34,957 bases of DNA from Spirochaetaceae bacterium (GTDB lineage Bacteria > Spirochaetota > Spirochaetia > Treponematales > Breznakiellaceae), in the NCBI GenBank assembly GCA_031279285.1, contig JAITIR010000119.1, positions 1-34,957 of the forward strand, in the 5' to 3' direction. The notes under the pieces are model-generated. The model saw only the letters and a program-made list of their open reading frames with translations. It did no database searches and was not told the origin of the DNA. Positions 1 through 34,957 of the stretch are shown one piece after another. Positions within the stretch are counted from its first letter, which is position 1, and each line of letters starts with the position of its first letter. Both the position numbers and the translations under genes were made by a program.

Positions 1-26
1 CGTTGGCGCAATCGGTGCTACTTTAA
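1..26. repeat. 26-bp segment identical to the reverse complement of 34384..34409, inside the IS30-like transposase remnant; the window probably begins inside a second, diverged copy
   Basis: Direct comparison: 1..26 'cgttggcgcaatcggtgctactttaa' equals the minus strand at 34409..34384. The two copies diverge after 26 nt but still share short motifs (aacaaagtt, gcgtaat, ttgaca). Confidence 0.6.
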
Positions 27-3206: not shown

Positions 3207-3288
3207 CCAGGGCTGTTTAAAAACAAAGCCTGGATTAGGCACTACGCAAGAATGCCATGCATTTTATTCTGACTTGGAGTTTAATACC

Positions 3289-3372
3289 CCGCCACAAAAC
3301 AGCGTTAAGCTGTTTTGCTTGACGTTTTGCCGCTTGCCTAACCCGATAAGGAAGGGTAGGCGGGGTATCTAT
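3289..3372 (-). repeat. Copy A of an ~80-bp repeat family with terminal inverted repeats CCCCGCC...GGCGGGG
   Basis: Its reverse complement matches 23944..24022 with about 3 mismatches. It contains the hairpin caaaacagc-ttaac-gctgttttg. It is intergenic, between the flavoprotein gene and gatC. Confidence 0.8.
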
Positions 3373-3490
3373 TGTAAGCGTTGCATTATTTACACGGTTC
3401 GATCGGCCGCGGAAATTTATCATCGTATATGTTTTTAACCATACCGCCCCATCGTAGACACAAACTACTAAAAAATGTCATCATTTAGGC

Positions 3491-3880
3491 ATGGAAAATG
3501 AAGGCGGAGACAAGGCGGCGCCAATTATGGCGGCGCCAATTATGGCGGCGCCACAACCTGTAGCGGAAATACCTATTGAGGATTTGCGGATAACGGCGTC
3601 GCTGGCCCATCTTAACACAGGCGAAGCGGAACTAGAGGCGGCGCTGCCTGCTTTTCGTGATATGCTTTCCTACTTTGCCGCGATGCAGGCGGCGGACAAC
3701 GATGAAAAGGCGTTTGGCGGCCCAATCAAGGGGCTTTCGTTTGCGGGAAAAAGCGTTGACGCCACCCACTTTAGGGCGGATGCGGCGTTGCCCGGTGCGG
3801 CGGAGGATTTAACCGAAACGATGCTGGATAATTCCGGCGAGAGGGACAGCCATTTTATCGTTGTCCCGAATGTTTTATGA
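3491..3880 (+). CDS. gatC: Asp/Glu-tRNA(Asn/Gln) amidotransferase subunit C, with an N-terminal extension or ambiguous start
   Basis: IPIEDLRITASLAHL...HFIVVPNVL matches the GatC pattern (IS.EEV..VA.LARL ... VP.V). It lies directly upstream of gatA and gatB. Alternative in-frame ATG starts sit inside a tandem repeat (3537, 3552). No clear Shine-Dalgarno sequence for any start. Confidence 0.65.
   Translation: MENEGGDKAAPIMAAPIMAAPQPVAEIPIEDLRITASLAHLNTGEAELEAALPAFRDMLSYFAAMQAADNDEKAFGGPIKGLSFAGKSVDATHFRADAALPGAAEDLTETMLDNSGERDSHFIVVPNVL
3525..3563 (+). repeat. 2.6 copies of the 15-bp tandem repeat gcggcgccaattatg, in frame in the gatC 5' region (AAPIM x2)
   Basis: Direct reading: gcggcgccaattatg gcggcgccaattatg gcggcgcca. 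Confidence 0.85.
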
Positions 3881-4019
3881 AATGAGGCTGTTCCCTTGAA
3901 CCGAAGGTTCGCACAGTGCCCCGGCTATGCCGGGGCCGTTTTGCGCGTAAATGATTAGTTTTGGAACAGGTTCAAATACTAATGTATTATTAAATACTAT
4001 TGATAATATCGAGGAAAAT

Positions 4020-5471
4020 ATGACCCTGCCGGAAGGCTACGAACAGTACTTCAAAGAATGGGAAGACAAGACGGGCGCTTTTATCGAATTCGCGCCGGAT
4101 AAGGCGGTTTTTGGGCTGGCGGAAGCCGCGCCCTCAGCCTCTCCGCTGTCTGGCCTGCCGTTTGCCGTAAAGGACAACATCGCGGTAAAAGGTTTTTCGC
4201 TGAGCTGCGGCTCCAAACTGCTTGCGGAACTGAAGGCGCCGTACACGGCGACCGCCGTGCGGAAGCTGGAGGAGGCGGGCGCCGCCGTGATAGGCAAAAC
4301 CAACCTTGACGAGTTTGGCATGGGTTCTTCCACCGACAATTCCGGGATAAAACGCACGAACAATCCATGGGACACCGACCGTGTAGCGGGCGGTTCATCG
4401 GGAGGTTCCGCAGCGGCGGTGGCGGCGGGACTTGTGCCGTTTGCGCTCGGCTCGGACACGGGTGGTTCAATAAGGCAGCCCGCCTCGTTTTGCGGCGTCG
4501 TCGGTCTAAAGCCCACCTGGGGCGCGGTTTCCCGCTACGGCCTTGTGGCTTACGCCTCAAGCCTGGACACCGTCGGCGTGCTTGCCGGCAGCCTCGCTAT
4601 GACCCGCGACGTGTTCAACTGTGTGAAGGGCGCAGACCCGTTTGACCAGACGAGCCGGGACACGCCGTCCGGCGGCGTTCCCGCGGGAAACCTTATAGGT
4701 GTGCTGTCGCCCACCGCTATCGCGCAGGCGATAGCGGACGATTTTCCGGGCGAGGTGGCGAAGGCCGCCGTTCTGGAGCGGGAGGTCGAAGAGGCCTTCG
4801 ATCTGGCAAAAGAAAACCTAAAAAAACTGGGCTATAAACTTGTAGAAGTGGAGATAACAAGCCTCAAGTACGGGGTTCCCGCATATTACACGATAGCTAC
4901 GGCGGAGGCAAGCGCGAATCTGGCCCGTTTCGACGGTATCCGTTATGGGAAAAGGCCGGACTGGGCCGAAAACCCGGATGAGCTGATCGATAAATCCCGC
5001 GACAGCGGCTTTGGAAACGAGGTAAAGCTCCGTATCCTGCTGGGAACTTTCGTACTCCGTTCAGGTTTTCAGGACAGGTACTACCTTCGCGCCCAACGGA
5101 TACGCGCCGGCATAAGGCGCAATTTTGAAAAGTACCTTGGGTCGTTTGACGGTGGACCCTCCGGTAACGGCGGCGAGAGCTGCGCAGCAATCCTTATGCC
5201 GGTATTCCCGACACGGGCCTTTGGGCGTGGCGGAAGCGGCCTCTCGCCTTTTGCGCAAAAAGCCGCCGACCTGTACACCTGCTGCGCGAACCTTGCAGGG
5301 CTTCCCGCGCTCGCGTTCCCCGTGTCCGCGGAAGGCGGCCTGCCGGCGGGCGTTCAGCTTCTGGGGCGGCCCTTTGGCGAAGAAACGCTGTTTTCCATCG
5401 CTGAAAAGTACGAGGCTGCCCACCCGTTCCCGCACCCGCCGGGTTTCAAACGGTTTTGGGAGCGGAGCTAA
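4020..5471 (+). CDS. gatA: Glutamyl-tRNA(Gln) amidotransferase subunit A
   Basis: Amidase signature GGSSGGSAAAVAAG...GSDTGGSIRQPA. Start ATG 4020 (MTLPEG), with GAGGAAAA 8 nt upstream. The ORF-track start at 3951 is likely too far upstream. Confidence 0.9.
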   Translation: MTLPEGYEQYFKEWEDKTGAFIEFAPDKAVFGLAEAAPSASPLSGLPFAVKDNIAVKGFSLSCGSKLLAELKAPYTATAVRKLEEAGAAVIGKTNLDEFGMGSSTDNSGIKRTNNPWDTDRVAGGSSGGSAAAVAAGLVPFALGSDTGGSIRQPASFCGVVGLKPTWGAVSRYGLVAYASSLDTVGVLAGSLAMTRDVFNCVKGADPFDQTSRDTPSGGVPAGNLIGVLSPTAIAQAIADDFPGEVAKAAVLEREVEEAFDLAKENLKKLGYKLVEVEITSLKYGVPAYYTIATAEASANLARFDGIRYGKRPDWAENPDELIDKSRDSGFGNEVKLRILLGTFVLRSGFQDRYYLRAQRIRAGIRRNFEKYLGSFDGGPSGNGGESCAAILMPVFPTRAFGRGGSGLSPFAQKAADLYTCCANLAGLPALAFPVSAEGGLPAGVQLLGRPFGEETLFSIAEKYEAAHPFPHPPGFKRFWERS

Positions 5472-9173: not shown

Positions 9174-10637
9174 TTATGTGTCCGCTTCAAACAGGCCTGT
9201 AATTTTCCTGACCAGCGCCTTGCCAGCTTCCGTCTGCCCAAGACCCGCAAAGAGCCCATTCAGGGCCGCCGCCCCTTTCGACGAAAACAAATCAACCACC
9301 CTGTTTAACCCCGATTCCACGTTGCCCGCGTTAGCCAGTATTTCTATTTTCGCATTGCCAATGTTTTTCGCCTGTTCAATGCCTACATCCCGGTTCGCTT
9401 TTATCTGCTCGATCGTGATAAGGTACTGCTGGTACTCCTTGTTCTCGCCGACTTCTTTTGCAAGCGTTGTCTGCGCCGTAACGGACGCAAGCTGCCTGGC
9501 CTTTTCGGCCTCCGCTTCCGCAAGCCCGATGGACTGCTTTCCCTTCGCTTCGTTCTGCTGCTGGACAAGCGTTGCGGCGGCAACCTGCTCAATCCTGAAC
9601 TTGGACGCCTGCGCCTCCCATTCCACCGCCGTCTTCTTTGCCTCGGCCTCTATTTCGATAACGGATTTCTCCGCCTGCGCCTGCACTTCGCGCTGATACT
9701 TCTCCGCGTCCGCACCGATGCTGACAATCTCTTTCTGCTTGTTGGCGCTCACTATGGCCGCTTCCTTTTCAATCTCCGCCGCGCGGACGGTATTCACCTG
9801 GCTTACCGCCATCATCTTTTCCGCGGTAACCTTGCTCTCCTCCGCGACAGCCTGCTCCGCCTGCTGTTTCGCGATGCCGACAGCCTGATCCGATTTCGCC
9901 ACCGCCTCGCCCGACGCCTGCGCCGCAACGGCTTTTTTGACCTCGACCTCTTTTGTCGACTCAATCTCCGCTTCCTGCGCCTTCTGCCGGTTGAGCGCCA
10001 CCGTTACGCGGGACTCCTTCTCAATCTCCGATTTTTTCTTGGCCATAATATCCTGAATGACGCTGCTGTCTTTCGCGTCTTTGATATCCATCAATTCGAT
10101 ATTCTTTACCGGCACGACGCCCCATTGCGCAAGCTCTTCCTTCACATCGGTGGTAAACTGCTCCCCATAAATCGACCGTTCCTGCATGATCGATTCAAGG
10201 TCCGACTTCGCCATGATCGACCGCACCGAACCCTGCACGATCCCCGCGAGGTGGTCTTTCAGTTCCGCCATGCTCTCGACCTTCTGCGCCGCCTGATTCG
10301 TGTCGGCGATGCGGAAAAAGGCTTTGACATCAACGGTAAAGGGCAGGCGGTTCTTGTCGTACGCCTCGTAGCTGTTGAGGTCAAGATCGAAGTTGCTCAC
10401 CGGAAGCTCGCGTACGGTAACGCCCAGGAGGGGCAGCCAGACCGGCCATTTGTAGTAAACATTGCCCGCTTGCTGTCCCACCCCGTACGATACGGTCGTC
10501 TTGGACCGCTGAATGATGTGGACGGTATTTGCCGGCACGATGCGCCGGAGCTTAAGTACGTTGCGTACCAGCAGAAGCAGGATGATAAATCCTACAGCGA
10601 TACCCGCAATTGAAAGTATTTGGGTTAACTGAATCAT
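9174..10637 (-). CDS. SPFH/band-7 flotillin-like protein (YqiK/FloA-like) with a long Ala/Glu-rich coiled coil
   Basis: N-terminal TM helix (ILSIAGIAVGFIILLLLV), then an SPFH domain, then AEAEAEKARQ-type repeats. Start ATG 10637 (MIQLTQ), with AGGAGG 7 nt upstream. The ORF-track start at 10733 is likely too long. Confidence 0.8.
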   Translation of the reverse strand: MIQLTQILSIAGIAVGFIILLLLVRNVLKLRRIVPANTVHIIQRSKTTVSYGVGQQAGNVYYKWPVWLPLLGVTVRELPVSNFDLDLNSYEAYDKNRLPFTVDVKAFFRIADTNQAAQKVESMAELKDHLAGIVQGSVRSIMAKSDLESIMQERSIYGEQFTTDVKEELAQWGVVPVKNIELMDIKDAKDSSVIQDIMAKKKSEIEKESRVTVALNRQKAQEAEIESTKEVEVKKAVAAQASGEAVAKSDQAVGIAKQQAEQAVAEESKVTAEKMMAVSQVNTVRAAEIEKEAAIVSANKQKEIVSIGADAEKYQREVQAQAEKSVIEIEAEAKKTAVEWEAQASKFRIEQVAAATLVQQQNEAKGKQSIGLAEAEAEKARQLASVTAQTTLAKEVGENKEYQQYLITIEQIKANRDVGIEQAKNIGNAKIEILANAGNVESGLNRVVDLFSSKGAAALNGLFAGLGQTEAGKALVRKITGLFEADT

Positions 10638-22820: not shown

Positions 22821-23793
22821 TTGCGCTGCCCCGCGGTATGCTCTCCGTTTCCCCAACTATACCACAGCCGGAAAATTCCAGTAAGCGGTTCAAACCTGCA
22901 ACCTGAGCTGACCGTAACGGCTCTCGATACCGTTACAGCGATAGGGTACTATCTTTCCTCTAATAGGGCTAATTTCAGTATGGTTTATAATGTTGTCATA
23001 AAAACCATTGTTGATTCAATAATAATGTTTATGCTGTTTGTCATGCTGTTACCCGTTGAAATTAAATTCAAGAACAAATCTTTTTATGTTAATGCCGGGA
23101 AGAAATATCAACAGACAGCGGCAGCGGTTTTTTTTGTATCAGGAATATGCTTTTTTACAGTGACTATGGGGTTTCCTTCCTACTTGTATTCCCTGCGGAA
23201 AGAGCCGTCGACATTTTATGAAGAGAACTACATCGATCCTAATGATGTTGAAATAGCATTTCCCGAAAAAAGAGAAACCTGATAGTGATACTCATCGAAT
23301 CGCTGGAAACCGGCTTTTTAACGCTGGAAGACGGCGGTGCGTTCTCCGAAGACTTGATACAATAGCCGTAAGAATGTTTGCTTCTCAGTATAAAAATGTT
23401 TTGTTTGACATGGACAGGCAGTTGAGCAATTTTTTGGAATGGCTTGAAGGGCAGGAATTCTACGAAAATACAACCGTGGTTATTCTGGGAGATCACTTGT
23501 ATATGGACTCACATAAATATATTTATCAACTCCATGTTAACGGGAAAAAATACCAAAACAGGATTTTTTCGCATTTTGATATTTTCCCCGCGCTGATAGA
23601 TTCAATCGGAGGCGTTTACGATGCAAAAGGGCTGGCACTCGGACGTTCAATGAATAAAGGTGAGCATACCCTGCTCGAAGAATTTGGCGTTGACCATGTA
23701 AACAACGCCCTACAGCGCTGTTTGTGGCGGGGAAGTTCATCAATTACAATGAACTCCCTTCGCAGCCGTTGTAGGACAAAGATTTATGATTGA
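22821..23793 (+). pseudogene. LtaS/sulfatase (alkaline-phosphatase superfamily) gene remnant, low GC, frameshifted and internally deleted
   Basis: ORF 22821..23282 encodes TM helices plus an FYEENYIDPNDVEIAFPEKR linker, LtaS-like. Between 23283 and 23373 a different frame reads IVILIESLETGF (catalytic-region-like) and then stops. ORF 23374..23793 encodes the C-terminal sulfatase part (TTVVILGDHLYMDS...IFPALIDSIGG). Total about 970 bp versus about 1.9 kb for an intact LtaS. AT-rich relative to its flanks. Confidence 0.55.
23713..23745 (+). repeat. Copy D (partial) of the repeat family, between the LtaS remnant and tRNA-Lys
   Basis: acagcgctgtttgtggcggggaagttcat matches the core ctgttttgtggcggggcggttcat. 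Followed by the local inverted repeat agttcat/atgaact. Confidence 0.6.
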
Positions 23794-23863
23794 GCCGCCC
23801 GGAGATCGAATCCAGGACCCACGCCTTAAAAGGGCGTTGCTCTACCGACTGAGCTAGCGGCCC
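23791..23863 (-). tRNA. tRNA-Lys (anticodon UUU)
   Basis: The 73-nt cloverleaf folds by hand: acceptor stem GGGCCGC/GCGGCUC (one G-U pair), D-arm GCUC-AGUCGGUA-GAGC, anticodon stem ACGCC/GGCGU with loop CUUUUAA, T-arm CUGGA-UUCGAUC-UCCGG, discriminator A. No encoded CCA. Confidence 0.9.
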
Positions 23864-23937
23864 GAACAATTCATGCTAACATATTTCAGAAAAAGAGGTC
23901 AAGCGCCTGATCCGGAATGGGAGCTTCATTCTGTCTT

Positions 23938-24030
23938 GGGGTTTAACCCCGCCTATCCTTCCTTATCGGGTTAGGCAAACGGCAAAACGTCAGGCAAAAC
24001 AGCTTAACGCTGTTTTGTGGCGGGGCGGTT
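23938..24030 (+). repeat. Copy B of the repeat family (full ~80-bp unit plus the right flank cggttcatt shared with copy C)
   Basis: aaccccgcctatccttccttatcgggttaggcaaacggcaaaacgtcaggcaaaacagcttaacgctgttttgtggcggggcggttcatt. It has the 7-bp terminal IRs ccccgcc/ggcgggg and the internal 9-bp stem hairpin. Confidence 0.8.
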
Positions 24031-24189
24031 CATTCGCCAAGCCGCCGTCAAACCCGGCGAAGCGGGAACGGCGGCGTATGAAACTATTGTGTATTGAGCC
24101 TGTTCCAAAACTAATCAAGTGTGCGCTAAACGGCCCCGTCATAGACGGGTGCACGGTGCGAACCTTCGATTCGATGGAACAGGCTCAAT

Positions 24190-24753
24190 TTACATTGAAG
24201 CGGCGTTTTTGTATCCGGAAAACTCCCCGGTGGACGGCACGAAACGGCTCAAAGAGACGATATCCGCGCTACTATGGGCACGGCTTAGCTCCTCGCCGTC
24301 CTTGTCAAGGAGTATGGCGGTCGGGGTTGACATGACATTTCTGCGCATCGCCTCCGCAAGACCATCCTCATTCGCCGTGTCGATCGTGTCAAAAGGTATA
24401 CCAAGCCTCCCGGCAGCGGCTTTTGCGCTTGGACAAGCCGGACATCCGGGGCGCACGAACAGCAGAACATGCGGTTCTGACGAGTTAAACGGTTCGACTT
24501 TTTCTAGGACAGCGGCGGACACGGCGGCCGCGTTTGCGACGTGGGGCGTAACGCCTTCAGTATGCGCCGTAGAAGTTTCTATGTCGTAGAGGCGGCGTTC
24601 ACCGTACTCTTCGCGTTTGCCCTTGTTCCAATTACGGACTGACCGGTAGTAGCCCACGATCCTGCTATAAACCTCGGCAGGCGCGCCTTTCACGCTGGAA
24701 AGCGCCCCCCTAACCTGCTCCAAATCCTTCTCAATTTCCTCAAGTTTTCTCAT
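24190..24753 (-). CDS. NrdD glycyl-radical C-terminal domain fused to a glutaredoxin/NrdH-like CPAC redoxin domain, encoded separately from nrdD
   Basis: SRIVGYYRSVRNWNKGKREEYGERR matches the class III RNR glycyl-radical motif (R[VI]xGY...WNxGKxEE...R). The C-terminus LLFVRPGCPACP...STPTAILLDKDGEE is thioredoxin-fold. AGGAG lies 7 nt upstream of ATG 24753. Confidence 0.7.
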   Translation of the reverse strand: MRKLEEIEKDLEQVRGALSSVKGAPAEVYSRIVGYYRSVRNWNKGKREEYGERRLYDIETSTAHTEGVTPHVANAAAVSAAVLEKVEPFNSSEPHVLLFVRPGCPACPSAKAAAGRLGIPFDTIDTANEDGLAEAMRRNVMSTPTAILLDKDGEELSRAHSSADIVSLSRFVPSTGEFSGYKNAASM

Positions 24754-24843
24754 AAAGTTCTCCTAAATTAAATATGCGGCAATCTGCCGTATTATATAAA
24801 TATGCGGCTGCCTACCTCCACTGAACACGGCCCCCACCCCCTT

Positions 24844-26982
24844 TCAGCCGACCTTCAGTACCATTTCACGCTCCGCTTCCAACTCCGCGATACGGCTGCG
24901 CAGTTCATCTTCGCGCTCTTTTTTACATTTGGGGCAGGTAAAATGTTCACCCTTTAGATAGCCATGCACGGCACAAACCGAAAATGTCGGCGAGATTGTA
25001 AAGTATGGAATTCTGTAGTTGTGAGCCACCGCTTTTACCAAATCCCGGCAGGCGCGCCAGTCATCTATAGCCTCGCCCAAGAAAGCATGAAAGACCGTAC
25101 CTCCCGTGTAGGCGTTCTGTAGCTTCTCCTGTAGATCGAGGGCGTCGAAAATGTCATCGGTTTGCATCACGGGCAACTGCGTAGAGTTTGTGTAGTAAGG
25201 CTCATTTTCGCCGGCCGTGATGATATCCGGGTAGTGCGACTTGTCGTGTCTGGCAAGCCGGTACGAGGTAGACTCGGCGGGCGTTGCCTCAAGGTTGAAA
25301 AGATCGCCTGTTTCCTCCTGAAAGTCGGCAAGTTTGTTACGCATGAATTCAAGAACCTTAAGCGCGAAGGCGCGCCCATTATCCGTAGCGATGGTAACAT
25401 CCCGTCCCAGAAAATTCAGCAGGCACTCGTTCATACCGACAAGCCCTATCGTGTTAAAATGGTTGTTCAGTGTGCCAAGATAGCGCTTTGTGTACGGAAA
25501 AAGCCCCGATTCCAGCAGTTTATTGACCACCTTTCGCTTTATAACAAGCGATTCTTTGGCAAGTTCCATCAAAACGAGCAGTCTGTCGAAAAATTCACCC
25601 TCGGTTTTTGAAAGATAGCCGATGCGGGGCAGGTTGATCGTAACCACGCCTATTGAACCGGTAAGCTCATCTGAACCAAACAGGCCGCCGCCGCGCTTAC
25701 GCAGCTCGCGTTTGTCAAGCTGAAGGCGGCAGCACATAGAACGGACATCACCTGGATTCAGGTCCGAATTGACAAAATTCTGGAAGTAAGGCGTGCCGTA
25801 ACGCGAAGTCATCTCGAACAACAGGTGCGTATTCTCACTGTCCCAGTCAAAGTCCGCCGTGATATTGTACGTGGGGATCGGGTACTGAAACCCGCGCCCA
25901 TCCGCGTCGCCATCCAACATCAACTCAATGAAAAGCCTGTTGACCCTGTCCATTTCCGGCTTGCAATCGCCGTAGGTAAAATCCATCTCTTTACCACCCA
26001 CGACAGCCTTGCTATCGCGAAGATCGCCCGGCACAGTCCAGTCCAGCGTGATGTTGGTAAACGGCGCCTGGCTGCCCCAGCGGCTTGGCGTGTTTACGCC
26101 GAAAACAAAACTCTGAAGGCACTGCTTGACTTCTTTGTCGCTCATACCGTCAGCCTTGACGAACGGGGCTATGAAGGTGTCGAAGGAACTGAACGCCTGG
26201 GCGCCGGCCCATTCATTCTGTAGGCAGCCCAGAAAATTCACTGCCTGTTGCATCAACGTAGAAAGGTGCTTTGCCGGTTTGCTCGTTATCTTGTCCGGCA
26301 CGCCGCCCAAACCCTCTTTTATAAGCTGCCTCAAGGACCATCCGGCGCAGTAACCGGAAAACATCGACAGATCGTGCAGGTGAAAGTCCGCATTCCGGTG
26401 AGCGTCCGCGATTTCAGACGTATAGATGTTTTTAAGCCAGTAGTTCGCTGTAATACTGCCGGAATTGTGCAGTATAAGGCCGCCAAGCGAGTAGTTGACG
26501 TTAGCGTTCTCGTTGACTCGCCAGTCAGACTGCTTCAAGTAGCCGTCCATCGTCTCATCAATGTTGAGCATCAGTTTTTTTACGTCCCGCATCGCGTCAT
26601 GTTTGGCGCGGTAGAGGATGTAGGCCTTGGCAACGGCCGTTTCTCTGAACTCGATCAGCGCGTTTTCAACCAAATCCTGTATCTCTTCGATCGCGGGTAT
26701 AGATTTTTCATGCCTGGAAGACATCATATCCTCGATCAGCTCTTCGACACGGCTCGTGACAGCCTCGATTTTTTTATCGTCTGCCCCGCAGCCGCCCCTC
26801 ATGGAGGCCGTACCCTCACGGCCACCATGGACAGAGCCCGCACCTACAGTCCCAAGCTGTTCCGCATAAGCACTTCGGTTGCCTCCGGCAACAGCTATGA
26901 ACGCTTTGGAAATAGCGTTTTTAATTTTCGACCGGTCGTAAGGTTTTACCTCACCAGACCTCTTAACCACGTTTTTTATCAC
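24844..26982 (-). CDS. nrdD: Anaerobic ribonucleoside-triphosphate reductase catalytic subunit (class III); ends after the Zn ribbon, with no glycyl-radical motif
   Basis: ATP-cone (VIKNVVKRSGEVKPYDRSKIKNAISKAF), NrdD core (NLEATPAESTSYRLA...YYTNSTQ), and a C-terminal Zn ribbon CxxH...CPKC. Probable GTG start at 26982 (GGAGAG-4 nt-GTG), overlapping the nrdR end. The ORF-track ATG at 27033 would overlap nrdR by 71 nt. Confidence 0.9.
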   Translation of the reverse strand: MIKNVVKRSGEVKPYDRSKIKNAISKAFIAVAGGNRSAYAEQLGTVGAGSVHGGREGTASMRGGCGADDKKIEAVTSRVEELIEDMMSSRHEKSIPAIEEIQDLVENALIEFRETAVAKAYILYRAKHDAMRDVKKLMLNIDETMDGYLKQSDWRVNENANVNYSLGGLILHNSGSITANYWLKNIYTSEIADAHRNADFHLHDLSMFSGYCAGWSLRQLIKEGLGGVPDKITSKPAKHLSTLMQQAVNFLGCLQNEWAGAQAFSSFDTFIAPFVKADGMSDKEVKQCLQSFVFGVNTPSRWGSQAPFTNITLDWTVPGDLRDSKAVVGGKEMDFTYGDCKPEMDRVNRLFIELMLDGDADGRGFQYPIPTYNITADFDWDSENTHLLFEMTSRYGTPYFQNFVNSDLNPGDVRSMCCRLQLDKRELRKRGGGLFGSDELTGSIGVVTINLPRIGYLSKTEGEFFDRLLVLMELAKESLVIKRKVVNKLLESGLFPYTKRYLGTLNNHFNTIGLVGMNECLLNFLGRDVTIATDNGRAFALKVLEFMRNKLADFQEETGDLFNLEATPAESTSYRLARHDKSHYPDIITAGENEPYYTNSTQLPVMQTDDIFDALDLQEKLQNAYTGGTVFHAFLGEAIDDWRACRDLVKAVAHNYRIPYFTISPTFSVCAVHGYLKGEHFTCPKCKKEREDELRSRIAELEAEREMVLKVG

Positions 26983-27439
26983 TTTTCTCTCCCAATTTTT
27001 TGATCTCCTGGATAAATTCGTCAAGATCTTCAAAATGGCGGCATACGGACGCGAATCTTATGTAAGCCACCTTATCGAGCTGCCCCAATTTTTCCAGCAC
27101 CATCTCGCCTATGATATTTGTAGCCACCTCACGGTCCAAACCGGCGGAAATGACGGCCTGATCCTCAATTTCGTTTACAAGCCGTTCAACGTCCATCCGC
27201 GACACAGGCCGCTTCTGGATAGCCCGTTCCAAACCCACCTCGATCTTATTACGGTCGAATGGCTCGCGCCTGCCGTCCCGTTTTATCACCATAAACGGTT
27301 TTTCTTCTATCCGTTCATAGCTCGTAAACCGGTAGCCGCAGACCGTGCACTCCCTGCGGCGCCTGACGGCATCACCGTTGGCAAGGGTTCTGGATTCAAG
27401 GACTTTATCATCGACGTTACCGCAATGAGGACAACGCAA
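26963..27439 (-). CDS. nrdR: Transcriptional repressor NrdR
   Basis: MRCPHCG...CTVCGYRFTSYE zinc ribbon plus an ATP-cone. 158 aa. Directly upstream of nrdD. Confidence 0.9.
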   Translation of the reverse strand: MRCPHCGNVDDKVLESRTLANGDAVRRRRECTVCGYRFTSYERIEEKPFMVIKRDGRREPFDRNKIEVGLERAIQKRPVSRMDVERLVNEIEDQAVISAGLDREVATNIIGEMVLEKLGQLDKVAYIRFASVCRHFEDLDEFIQEIKKLGEKSDKKRG

Positions 27440-27547: not shown

Positions 27548-27605
27548 GTTTCCGGCAAGCAAAACAGCTTAACGCTGTTTTGTGGCGGGGCGGTTCATTT
27601 CTGTG
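27548..27605 (+). repeat. Copy C of the repeat family (right half only) in the nrdR / radical-SAM gene intergenic region
   Basis: gcaagcaaaacagcttaacgctgttttgtggcggggcggttcattt is identical to the copy B core. The 13-bp segment cggttcatttctg (27591-27603) has an inverted partner at 27757-27769. Confidence 0.75.
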
Positions 27606-33878: not shown

Positions 33879-33995
33879 TTAATATTACCACACTCATCAG
33901 GGTGTAACATTTTAGTTTCATTCGCAATGGGGTCTGCCCTGCCGCAAACACCAATTCAATTGTAAAGTGCGGAAAGATAGTCCGAGAGAACCTCG

Positions 33996-34420
33996 TTAGG
34001 AGCCCGGTATCCTTACATCCTTGCGAGTGCGGTGAGTAATAGCCTTGATTTTTCTACAATCCGGTCAAGCTGCCTTTGGGTCAGCCCCTCAAATAATGCC
34101 ACTTTTGGCAGATACTGCCGTGTCAATCCGTTGGTGTGTTCATTCAACCCCCGTTCCCATGAATGATAGGGATAGGTAATGCGCAAAACCCCGCCGGCGG
34201 GGTTTTGCGCATTGCCTTCAGTACGAAAAAGGCGCTTTGCATACGCTGCTGGAGGCGGGGTTTGGTTTGACCTTTTGGAAACCGCGAATTAGGGCAACGC
34301 TGATTAACTTGAGGCCAATCATCGTTGCCTATGTATTTGCTCATTTCATTACGCAAATGTGTCAACAAAGTTGATATTCGCATTAAAGTAGCACCGATTG
34401 CGCCAACGTAGTTGGCGAAT
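33996..34420 (-). pseudogene. IS30-family transposase remnant (C-terminal catalytic region, multiple frameshifts)
   Basis: As described for the mobile element above. The frame breaks at an A-run (gaaaaatcaagg) and at the 36-bp palindrome. Confidence 0.5.
34178..34213. repeat. Perfect 36-bp palindrome aatgcgcaaaaccccgcc|ggcggggttttgcgcatt inside the transposase remnant
   Basis: Exact reverse-complement symmetry by direct reading. It coincides with a reading-frame break in the IS30-like ORF. Confidence 0.85.
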
Positions 34421-34957
34421 TCTCGATTGAATAAATCAGTGCTTCCTTAGCTGTACTCACCCCCACTCCTGCATAGTTTGTGTTACGAACTGTATGATGG
34501 CTCTTTCATTCTACCCTTCTTCCTTTGACCCGTAACAGAAGGCCCATTACTGACGGATTATTGAGGAATGACAGTAGGGACTGTCTAAGGAACCTCCTCC
34601 GACCTGAAGGCGCAAACAAGTTTGCGCGCAAAATCTGCGGCGGAGTATCTTGTAAGCATTACATTATTTGAGAGGAGGCTTGTTCTGTAAGACAAGCCGC
34701 TCTGTGGCTTGCCGCGTGGCTGGTATGCCGGCGGCACACCAGCCACGTGGTAGTAGACAACGGTCTACTACCAGATATTTGTTAGTGTTGCTGACTCGAA
34801 GCGCCCCGAAGGGCGGGGAATTAACCCCTAAAGTGATTAAATCTACAGAATTATCAAAATAATTGCTCTTATATTGACTTTAGAATTTCAAAGACAGTCC
34901 GAGGCTTACCACTTGCAACCCACTGTATCCCAATTCAAGATAGGCGCCAATATTATT

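Follow-up and report, generated by a model that had tools for sequence, protein, structure and literature searches.

The stretch of DNA analysed here, called the window throughout, comprises positions 1-34,957 of contig JAITIR010000119.1 of a Spirochaetaceae bacterium (assembly GCA_031279285.1). Several copies of an 80-nt repeat lie in it among ordinary genes, including those for an FMN reductase, gatC, gatA, tRNA-Lys (23791-23863, minus strand), a split nrdD, nrdR, and a radical-SAM gene, and we interpret this repeat as a part of a mobile repeat family that we name F1. A repeat search of the window found positions 3287-3366 (minus strand) to be 96% complementary to 23946-24025 (plus strand), with three differences, and paired 23988-24034 with 27553-27599 (47 nt, 96%) and 23721-23740 with both 24014-24033 and 27579-27598 (20 nt, 90%). 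Exactly three instances of the 31-nt core CAAAACAGCTTAACGCTGTTTTGTGGCGGGG are present (0.00 expected from 100 shuffles), and the right-hand motif GGCGGGGMRGTTCAT occurs three times where 0.02 are expected by chance. In the copy at 23931, which lies just upstream of a promoter-like site for tRNA-Lys, a perfect 9-bp stem (CAAAACAGC/GCTGTTTTG) with the loop TTAAC occupies 23995-24017 and is referred to as hairpin B.

An initial annotation of the window had described four intergenic copies, two of them full, with CCCCGCC...GGCGGGG as 7-bp terminal inverted repeats (TIRs), and had likened them to a miniature inverted-repeat transposable element (MITE), a repetitive extragenic palindrome (REP), or a small structured RNA. 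The family is real, with two 80-nt copies (3 mismatches) and two 5′-truncated copies, and both the 9-bp stem with its TTAAC loop and the CCCCGCC...GGCGGGG pair are present as described. The copy limits were drawn too narrowly: conservation extends further, to a 104-nt unit at 23931-24034 with TTCATT before it, and what had been taken for a shared “right flank”, ggcggggcggttcat, belongs to the element as its right end. The count also overlooked a 249-nt relative at 34587-34835 (minus strand) and a leader fragment at 33923-33945, while one of the supposed full copies, 3287-3366, belongs to a rearranged chimera. Intergenic placement holds for three copies but not for the fragment at 23716-23740, which overlaps the 3′ end of an open reading frame (ORF) at 23374-23793. 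The copies and their parts are listed below as read from the sequence; L-numbers denote individual loci from other genomes compared with the window, and profile matches (nhmmer) refer to a profile built from 15 two-hairpin composite elements, which matched five places in the window.

23925-23930, plus strand: TTCATT, the conserved motif abutting the left end (target or transposon-adjacent motif), as at 24 of 25 true left ends
23931-24034, plus strand: 104-nt one-hairpin (“solo”) element, with the same architecture at L008 733-836 and in L018; 23946-24034 matches profile positions 169-259 (E=5e-26)
23931-23946, plus strand: leader of the 104-nt element
23947-23953, plus strand: left clamp, CCCCGCC
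23954-23994, plus strand: imperfect hairpin A and linker
23995-24017, plus strand: perfect 9-bp hairpin B
24019-24025, plus strand: right clamp, GGCGGGG
24026-24034, plus strand: tail, CGGTTCATT
3263-3286, plus strand: TTTATT and leader CTGACTTGGAGTTTAATA, fused to the clamp of the adjoining minus-strand copy; leader variant also in window 23931, L019, and L031
3287-3423, minus strand: right-hand part of a composite, comprising the 80-nt module (3287-3366) and a conserved internal segment ...ATAAATTTCCGCGGCCGATCGAACCGTGTAAATAATGCAACGCTTACAATAGATA (3367-3423); matches profile positions 115-250 (E=3e-37)
27553-27599, plus strand: 5′-truncated right end (hairpin B, right clamp, tail), 96% alike over 47 nt to 23988-24034; matches profile positions 213-259 (E=2e-12)
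23716-23740, plus strand: short fragment of a right end (..GCTGTTTGTGGCGGGGAAGTTCAT) with an inverted partial tail (ATGAACTCCC) after it, from repeat comparison; profile match of E=0.008 only, weak on its own
34587-34835, minus strand: 249-nt two-hairpin composite without the 80-nt module, aligned with 14 composites from four metagenome-assembled genomes (MAGs)
33917-33945, plus strand: TTCATT and leader-like fragment CGCAATGGGGTCTGCCCTGCCGC, left end only
34424-34435, minus strand: unoccupied insertion site, ..CACTGATTTATT joined to CAATCGAG.., with TTTATT at 34430-34435 and the insertion point between 34429 and 34430

The composite at 34587-34835 is itself part of the profile, and its match to positions 3-259 is circular; the evidence for it is the alignment. 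It is diverged, with its right hairpin filled by GCAGATTTTGCGCGCAAACTTGTTTGCGCCTTCAGGTC, the tail GGTTCCTT, and the left flank TTTAAT. Judged from its layout, the stretch 3263-3423 is a chimeric, rearranged copy in which the tail is gone and an inverted leader stands in its place, and a similar arrangement is found in L023.

Alignment of the copies together with their flanks identified the 80-mer as one module of a larger unit made of a leader, one or two hairpins, and a tail. The CCCCGCC/GGCGGGG pair forms a hairpin base, or clamp, inside this unit and does not mark its ends, as the family alignment passes it by 16–18 nt on the left (leader) and by 9 nt on the right (tail), which the initial annotation had given as a second outcome that would speak against its reading. 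The full form is a 200–304-nt composite that contains, in order, a leader (CGCAGTGGGGTCT(GCTC/AATA), or alternatively CTGNCNTGGGGTTTAATA), hairpin 1 (CCCCGCC-loop-GGGGCGG, 17 nt from the left end), several conserved internal segments (TTAGAAT.., a small stem-loop, ACAAAAAATGGTAGTAGAC, variable hairpins, and ATGATAAATTTCCGCAGCCGATCGAACC..ATAATGCAACGCTTACAAGATA), hairpin 2 (CCCCGCC...GGCGGGG, 9 nt from the right end), and the tail (A/C)GGTTCATT. The 80-mer corresponds to hairpin 2 with a 66-nt filling, in which hairpin A, which uses the left clamp, is followed by the linker CAAAACGTCAGG and perfect hairpin B. This filling is placed in hairpin 1 in L004 and L024, is replaced by a perfect 17-bp hairpin in L003, L021, and L023 or by other sequence in L008, L018, and window 34587-34835, and may be absent (tetraloop). 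One-hairpin forms between leader and tail measure 46 nt (L006), 66 nt (L031), or 104 nt (L008, L018, and window 23931-24034), and the family as a whole comes in sizes of 46, 66, 104, 162–304, and 1162 nt. The 7-bp inverted pair is found in nearly all copies. Scrambled forms carry the inverted tail on both sides (L014 and L028) or a leader fused to the inverted right part (window 3263-3423 and L023).

A scan of one genome per species across 185,579 species, with AACAGC-N5-GCTGTTTTGTGGCGGGG as the query, recovered the F1 core in 31 contigs, all from four termite-gut MAGs labelled Spirochaetaceae or Treponema (Im510_bin105, Pcl387_bin63, Pcl387_bin1, and Cd354_bin111). The flanks of these matches are mutually unrelated. 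The several copies within 35 kb, taken by themselves, would fit a segmental duplication confined to this region, which the initial annotation had named as the outcome that would speak against a dispersed element; with the core present in 31 contigs of four other genomes, that explanation is refuted and retains practically no probability. At 11 loci of a single MAG, Im510_bin105, an 81-nt version of the module is identical. Among 54 profile matches in the 239 kb of sequence searched, 50 lie outside ORFs of ≥150 aa, though such ORFs make up 77% of the sequence. Orientation is unbiased relative to both the upstream gene (9 same, 16 opposite) and the downstream gene (10 same, 15 opposite), which fits a DNA-level selfish element. 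At least 10 of the core matches lie <400 nt from a contig end, in keeping with repeats that break assemblies. No F1 copies were found in viral contigs or plasmids. A metagenome scan with NrdD for orthologous empty sites of the 23931 and 27553 copies returned a best relative of 78% identity and the element in none of 80 loci, with differing synteny (tRNA-Met where the window has tRNA-Lys), and BLAST of the window flanks against all loci found no orthologues.

The boundaries of the element were set by a pair of filled and empty sites. At L017 a 273-nt composite lies between CTAAGGAAGCACTGATTTATT and CAATCGAGAATTCGCCAACTATGTTGGCGCAATCGG, and the window carries the same flanks on both sides of an empty site at 34455-34383 (minus strand), which reads CTAAGGAAGCACTGATTTATTCAATCGAGAATTCGCCAACTACGTTGGCGCAATCGG; a query made of the joined L017 flanks matches the window over 56 nt at 98%. 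The insert begins with CGCAG and ends with GGTTCATT, to within a 3-nt ATT ambiguity. Any duplication is limited to 3 nt at most, and the two tips do not form inverted repeats. The insertion site lies inside another small repeat, here called F3. In the family at large, too, the tips CGCAGTGGGG and AATGAACCTC are not inverted repeats of each other; in the filled/empty pair and in the family alignment alike, the unit ends CGCAGTGGGG... and ...AGGTTCATT are not complementary.

In the window and the compared loci, TT(T/C)ATT or a sequence one base different stands before 24 of the 25 true left ends (TTTATT in 19), with random sequence further upstream. Some 40 right ends have (A/C)GGTTCATT, at most one base altered, and then give way to unrelated sequence. 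The element's own last bases are TTCATT, and with the left flank mostly TTTATT there is no 4–6-bp target duplication. An element that ends in a target-like TTCATT can receive new copies directly behind old ones, and tandem junctions in which ..GGTTCATT is followed immediately by CGCAGTGGGG.. are found in L027 and L019.

Family membership, boundaries, one clean insertion, a target motif, and intergenic dispersal in several genomes are thus observed directly, and we are highly confident that F1 is a mobile, non-autonomous repeat family with the boundaries given above. On our interpretation, the 80-nt repeat would be the elaborated hairpin of small, protein-less mobile elements present in a few termite-gut Spirochaetaceae and Treponema genomes. 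The moving unit would consist of the leader, one or two hairpins with the CCCCGCC/GGCGGGG base, and the tail; it would insert directly 3′ of TT(T/C)ATT and, through its own 3′ end, remake the target and so give rise to head-to-tail arrays. The two-hairpin composites would represent the full form, and the 46- to 104-nt forms, including window 23931-24034, are most simply explained as deletion derivatives that arose between the two like hairpins. The lack of TIRs and target duplications, the motif on the left, the related last bases, the like hairpins on the same strand, and the non-autonomous copies together suggest “peel-and-paste” mobilisation in trans, as a single strand, by a Y1 (HUH) tyrosine transposase that would recognise the hairpins. 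By analogy with the systems compared below we consider this enzyme class and the single-strand chemistry probable, with less confidence than mobility itself. Genes of the Y1 fold are abundant in the MAGs that carry F1.

Elements of the IS200/IS605 group and their palindrome-associated derivatives (PATEs) move as single strands by means of Y1 transposases that bind subterminal hairpins (PMC6006769, PMC10055086); they combine such hairpins with adjacent and encoded motifs, and their non-autonomous copies are mobilised in trans (PMC10055086, PMC6006769). F1 resembles PATEs in being protein-less, without TIRs or target duplication (as judged from one empty site), in the similar subterminal hairpins that composites carry at both ends on the same strand, in insertion 3′ of TT(T/C)ATT with the related TTCATT as its last bases, and in its many copies, presumably mobilised in trans. 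It differs in that no cognate insertion sequence (IS) with tnpA, tnpB, or iscB sharing the F1 ends was found in the window and ~240 kb of loci, in the frequency of one-hairpin forms (which carry a single hairpin), in the many copies rearranged around the palindromic clamp, and in the large optional 66-nt insert that the hairpin of either end can carry.

REP sequences and their mosaic units (BIMEs), together with the associated RAYT enzymes, are domesticated cousins of IS200/IS605 (PMC3733652). Like REP, BIME, and REPIN sequences, F1 consists of extragenic, high-copy hairpins in mosaic units of varying orientation, and the genomes that carry it contain RAYT-like genes of the Y1 fold. The earlier label “REP-like” came close, F1 being dispersed, multi-copy, non-coding, intergenic, mobile, and hairpin-based. 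The clamp hairpin carries no GTAG tag, and CGTC does not adjoin hairpin B but stands 3 nt away (definition in PMC3733652). The hairpin region is also longer (18 to 80 nt), F1 inserts cleanly next to a defined target motif on one side, a property not established for REPs, and no single-copy RAYT flanked by F1 was found, the nearby Y1-like genes being multi-copy with inverted repeats of their own. The TIRtron/TIRYT systems (Di Nocera et al. 2013, PMC3733652) offer a further parallel, as the Y1-like genes here are flanked by 17–20-bp inverted repeats, the GGGGACAG repeats of L118 fit the motif GGGGWSAS, the F1 leader (GGGGTCTG) resembles that motif, and a second repeat family described below, F2, looks like a TIR-repeat family. 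F1 itself, unlike these, has no TIRs, and the Y1-like family is multi-copy and has lost the HuH and Tyr motifs that all published TIRYTs and RAYTs keep (PMC3733652, PMC6006769).

The initial reading of a MITE bounded by CCCCGCC/GGCGGGG was wrong in detail, and the structured-RNA suggestion is so far unsupported. The pneumococcal BOX and the neisserial NIME and Correia elements are, like F1, small, intergenic, strongly folding, modular repeats whose modules may be present or absent; Correia elements differ in having TIRs and a TA duplication and BOX in lacking a defined target motif, and none is known to be related to F1 in sequence. Treponema denticola has an integron, and an attC site was considered for F1 on the resemblance of GTTAGGC to GTTRRRY; it was rejected, with F1 copies scattered among housekeeping genes in both orientations and not at cassette ends. 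An IS110/bridge-RNA type was likewise rejected, since conservation is confined to 6 nt beside the insertion point, on a single side. Rolling-circle movement of the IS91 type appears less likely, since both F1 ends carry the same hairpin.

Several observations weigh against transposition of F1 by a Y1 enzyme. Neither an autonomous copy nor a transposase gene between an F1 leader and tail was found in the window and ~240 kb of loci, and no leader and tail more than 1.3 kb apart were seen in the loci examined. The one-hairpin forms, if they move as such, do not fit the canonical two-end IS200/IS605 reaction. The filled/empty comparison is a single pair, lies within another repeat, and spans two different genomes, and a 3-bp ATT duplication may have arisen at L017. 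Recombination at the palindromic clamp, to judge from the scrambled copies, also shapes the family besides transposition. The only ORF found inside an F1 copy, one of 197 aa in the 1162-nt copy of L027 (Pfam Y1_Tnp, 25.2 bits against a cut-off of 23, with a weak match to NCBIfam REP_Tyr_transpos), was rejected as the partner gene because it belongs to a unit of its own with its own 17–20-bp inverted repeats (CTAAACTTGACCCRCAA), and the family of proteins to which it belongs lacks both HuH histidines and the catalytic-tyrosine helix.

This Y1-ORF unit is ~830–900 bp long, multi-copy, and encodes a protein of 147–199 aa. It is nested in F1 in either orientation (L027, and inverted in L009) and stands free of F1 in L015 and L112-L116. 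The following positions were recorded.

L027 6245-7083: Y1-ORF unit
L113 2350-3193: Y1-ORF unit
L114 ~2095-2822: Y1-ORF unit
L115 9448-10279: Y1-ORF unit
L015 ~7870-6976, minus strand: Y1-ORF unit

The encoded proteins (labelled P0001-P0120) belong to a large family with 700 matches, which includes more than 45 clusters at 88–100% identity in Spirochaetaceae MAGs and 376 clusters at 50% identity (E≤1e-10). Confident structure models cover their first 110 residues, and the structures that match best are TnpA of ISDra2, IS608, and IS200 and the E. coli RAYT; this fold search alone succeeded, as searches of PDB sequences with the protein or its profile gave no match. Of the 121 positions of the Pfam model, the match to the L027 ORF reaches as far as 108, and the NCBIfam match reaches 115 of 146. 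An invariant (R/W)-L-x-F-Y-I followed by a low-complexity tail stands where distant relatives (26–32% identity) keep NH-x-H and F-x-Y-I-x-x-NP, that is, the NHxH and Y--NP motifs. The family may represent a catalytically inactive derivative that binds DNA and continues to spread. A co-resident RAYT-like family without either of the two catalytic motifs that is nevertheless strongly conserved and multi-copy is an unusual by-product of this search.

The variable C-terminal tail of these proteins (GVRPHSGKRLAGR.. repeats) is coded by tandem units of 66–69 nt (L027 6700-6900 and equivalents), whose antisense strand reads ..TTTCC followed by CGCTGTGGGGTCTGACCCC.., closely like the F1 leader with its flank, TTATT followed by CGCAGTGGGGTCTGCTCCCCC. 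The resemblance of both the leader (GGGGTCTG) and these antisense repeats (CGCTGTGGGGTCTGACCCC) to GGGGWSAS is suggestive only. A canonical HuH/Y--NP Y1 gene is present in a MAG labelled Treponema sp. (L118, JAIRNO010000360.1), flanked by GGGGACAG repeats and not by F1; the JAIR/JAIS/JAIT accession series that it shares with the carrier MAGs suggests a termite-gut origin. Several copies of GGGGACAGAGCT(G/C), some in each orientation, surround the canonical Y1 genes at L118 2270-3200 and L117 4735-5620 (HVH and HFH; YIDDNP and YVDENP). These repeats fit the TIRYT motif GGGGWSAS and probably represent yet another spirochaete repeat family.

The predicted structure of F1 bears on the alternatives. 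As single-stranded DNA the 104-nt unit folds at −20.8 kcal/mol (z=−3.35 against shuffled sequences) and as RNA at −45 kcal/mol (z=−4.4), with z=−2.9 for the minus-strand RNA. The clamp is open in the plus-strand folds, its CCCC being paired with a leader GGGG and its GCC forming the start of hairpin A. In the minus-strand fold the clamp closes. The clamp and hairpin B are 96% paired yet invariant over 21 distinct module sequences, and among the 16 pairs of the 80-nt module none is changed on both sides; invariant helices of this kind provide no covariation for or against themselves. By contrast, the small stem-loop in the left part of composites shows two-sided changes (CGG/CCG, AGG/CCT, TTGG/CCAA, GGC/GCC, GTAG/CTAC, and GCGG/CCGC). 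In a hand-picked sub-alignment 77% of it pairs, and its covariation score of 0.336 exceeds all slid controls and compares with 0.20 for shuffles, of which 4 in 500 score as high. This is modest evidence, drawn from comparison of the copies, that the internal structure of composites is under selection. RNAalifold on the MAFFT alignment of composites was uninformative, as whole hairpins come and go. In a search of Rfam 15 only tRNA-Lys reached its gathering score, and permissive scans of L007, L012, L023, and window 23870-24200 gave chance-level matches (E≥0.19), leaving the element without a matching family. No terminator-like T run or conserved promoter-like feature coincides with the copies.

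As an alternative, the hairpins could have been adopted by the host as a REP-like structural repeat with little or no current mobility, kept for protection of mRNA 3′ ends, for termination, or as binding sites of a nucleoid or hairpin-binding protein, with the dead RAYT-like family as a possible partner. The strong intergenic preference, the stable predicted hairpins, and the high conservation of the module across the four MAGs and the window are consistent with such a role, as is the presence in the same genomes of the conserved, multi-copy dead-Y1 family, which has short motifs in common with the F1 leader (GGGGTCTG; antisense CGCTGTGGGGTCTGACCCC). A repeat kept for such functions would fit poorly with unbiased orientation relative to flanking genes, the missing T run, and the many truncated and scrambled copies; the 11 identical copies in one MAG and the clean, recent insertion point to ongoing spread, and no F1 was found within 10 kb of dead-Y1 loci in more distant genomes. 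We regard host adoption as unlikely. The covarying internal hairpin and the RNA fold score would also suit a functional structured RNA, either a small RNA family or an omega-RNA-like guide scaffold with its end at the right boundary, on which a TnpB/IscB-type nuclease would act in trans: composites have a conserved non-coding stretch of ~150 nt, upstream of the right hairpin and ending exactly at the element boundary, and PATEs often encode omega-RNAs acted on in trans (PMC10055086). Such an RNA is unlikely in view of the empty Rfam searches, permissive thresholds included, the 80-nt module without covariation, the lack of a conserved promoter, terminator, or orientation bias, and the selection by hand of the sub-alignment that covaries; no TnpB/IscB gene was seen in the examined loci, in which no systematic search for one was made. 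Taken jointly, two stronger versions of these ideas, in which the composite encodes a guide-RNA scaffold (~150 nt, with the flank as guide) for a trans-acting TnpB/IscB-type nuclease or the hairpins are ligands of the dead RAYT-like family, are improbable; the latter, if true, would be a partnership of repeat and binding protein of a kind not described before.

A classical MITE, that is, a deletion derivative of a DDE-type IS with CCCCGCC/GGCGGGG or the longer AATGAACCTCCCCGCC/GGCGGGGAGGTTCATT as its TIRs, is largely refuted and very improbable. F1 does share with MITEs its small size (46–304 nt), non-coding nature, and multiple copies; the 7-bp inverted pair occurs in nearly all of them, and at L014 875-964 and L028 5139-5176 a perfect 16-bp inverted repeat includes the tail on both sides. 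In most copies, however, the left side is the leader and not an inverted tail, and L014 and L028 show no flanking duplication. The filled/empty pair places the boundaries at leader and tail, without TIRs at the ends and without a target-site duplication beyond the 3-nt ATT ambiguity between L017 and the window. The one-sided TT(T/C)ATT is not half of a duplication either, since the other side reads TTCATT regardless.

We therefore consider F1 to be a previously undescribed family of a known kind, a hairpin-ended, target-specific, non-autonomous mobile repeat; no published description was found in the literature searched. If mobilisation by a Y1 enzyme is correct, termite-gut treponemes carry active, undescribed, hairpin-ended miniature transposons with a clear target motif, and a defined substrate (hairpin plus TTCATT) becomes available for finding the responsible Y1 transposase in a phylum whose systems of this type have received little attention. 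Copies at contig ends would then explain the fragmentation of these MAGs, and the copies could serve as markers for strain typing. The general concept is unchanged, as Y1-moved hairpin repeats are well known in enterobacteria, pseudomonads, Deinococcus, Helicobacter, and Geobacillus.

Further small repeats surround F1. The F2 family, unrelated to F1, is ~97 nt long with 14-bp TIRs (TTGAGCCTGTTCCA...TGGAACAGGCTCAA). Its two copies in the window (3880-3975 and 24094-24190) are 84–86% alike; one lies between gatC and gatA and the other 60 nt from the F1 copy at 23931, and F2 is also found at L112 ~2218-2332, L028 ~4589-4746, L029 55-112, and L010 ~2376-2491. Given a similar inverted repeat (CTAAACCTGTTCCGCAA), F2 may be a miniature derivative of the Y1-ORF unit. 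The third family, F3, ends in ..CTCGATTGAATAAATCAGTGCTTCCTTAGC and is present at window 34283-34455, L017 19-105 and 372-393, and L115 ~9483-9640. The window copy holds the unoccupied F1 insertion site. Window 1-26 is inverted and 100% identical to 34383-34408; the window thus begins within an inverted F3 copy, and its 34 kb are bracketed by inverted F3 copies.

An IS30-family transposase is represented at window 34013-34186 (minus strand) by a C-terminal fragment (NCBIfam transpos_IS30, E=5.5e-13, positions 219-260 of 267). A 44-nt, near-perfect palindrome at 34174-34217, AGGTAATGCGCAAAACCCCGCCGGCGGGGTTTTGCGCATTGCCT, truncates this fragment and contains CCCCGCC/GGCGGGG. Short tandem or palindromic repeats adjoin F1 in other loci, as TTGGGAGACAAGCCTTGC units and GACAAGCTTGTC palindromes (L015 7640-7720, minus strand; L003 ~320-360; L030 ~120-160), and the intergenic DNA of these MAGs is crowded with nested small repeats.

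In the region 22821-23793, the ORF at 23374-23793 is probably what is left of a disrupted gene. Its match to the sulfatase profile covers positions 204-245 only, and it continues into both the tRNA-Lys gene and the F1 fragment at 23716-23740. At 24190-27033 (minus strand) the anaerobic ribonucleotide reductase is seemingly split into a 729-aa NrdD ORF and, after it, a separate 187-aa ORF, in which the last ~30 residues of the NrdD profile are fused to a glutaredoxin-like domain.

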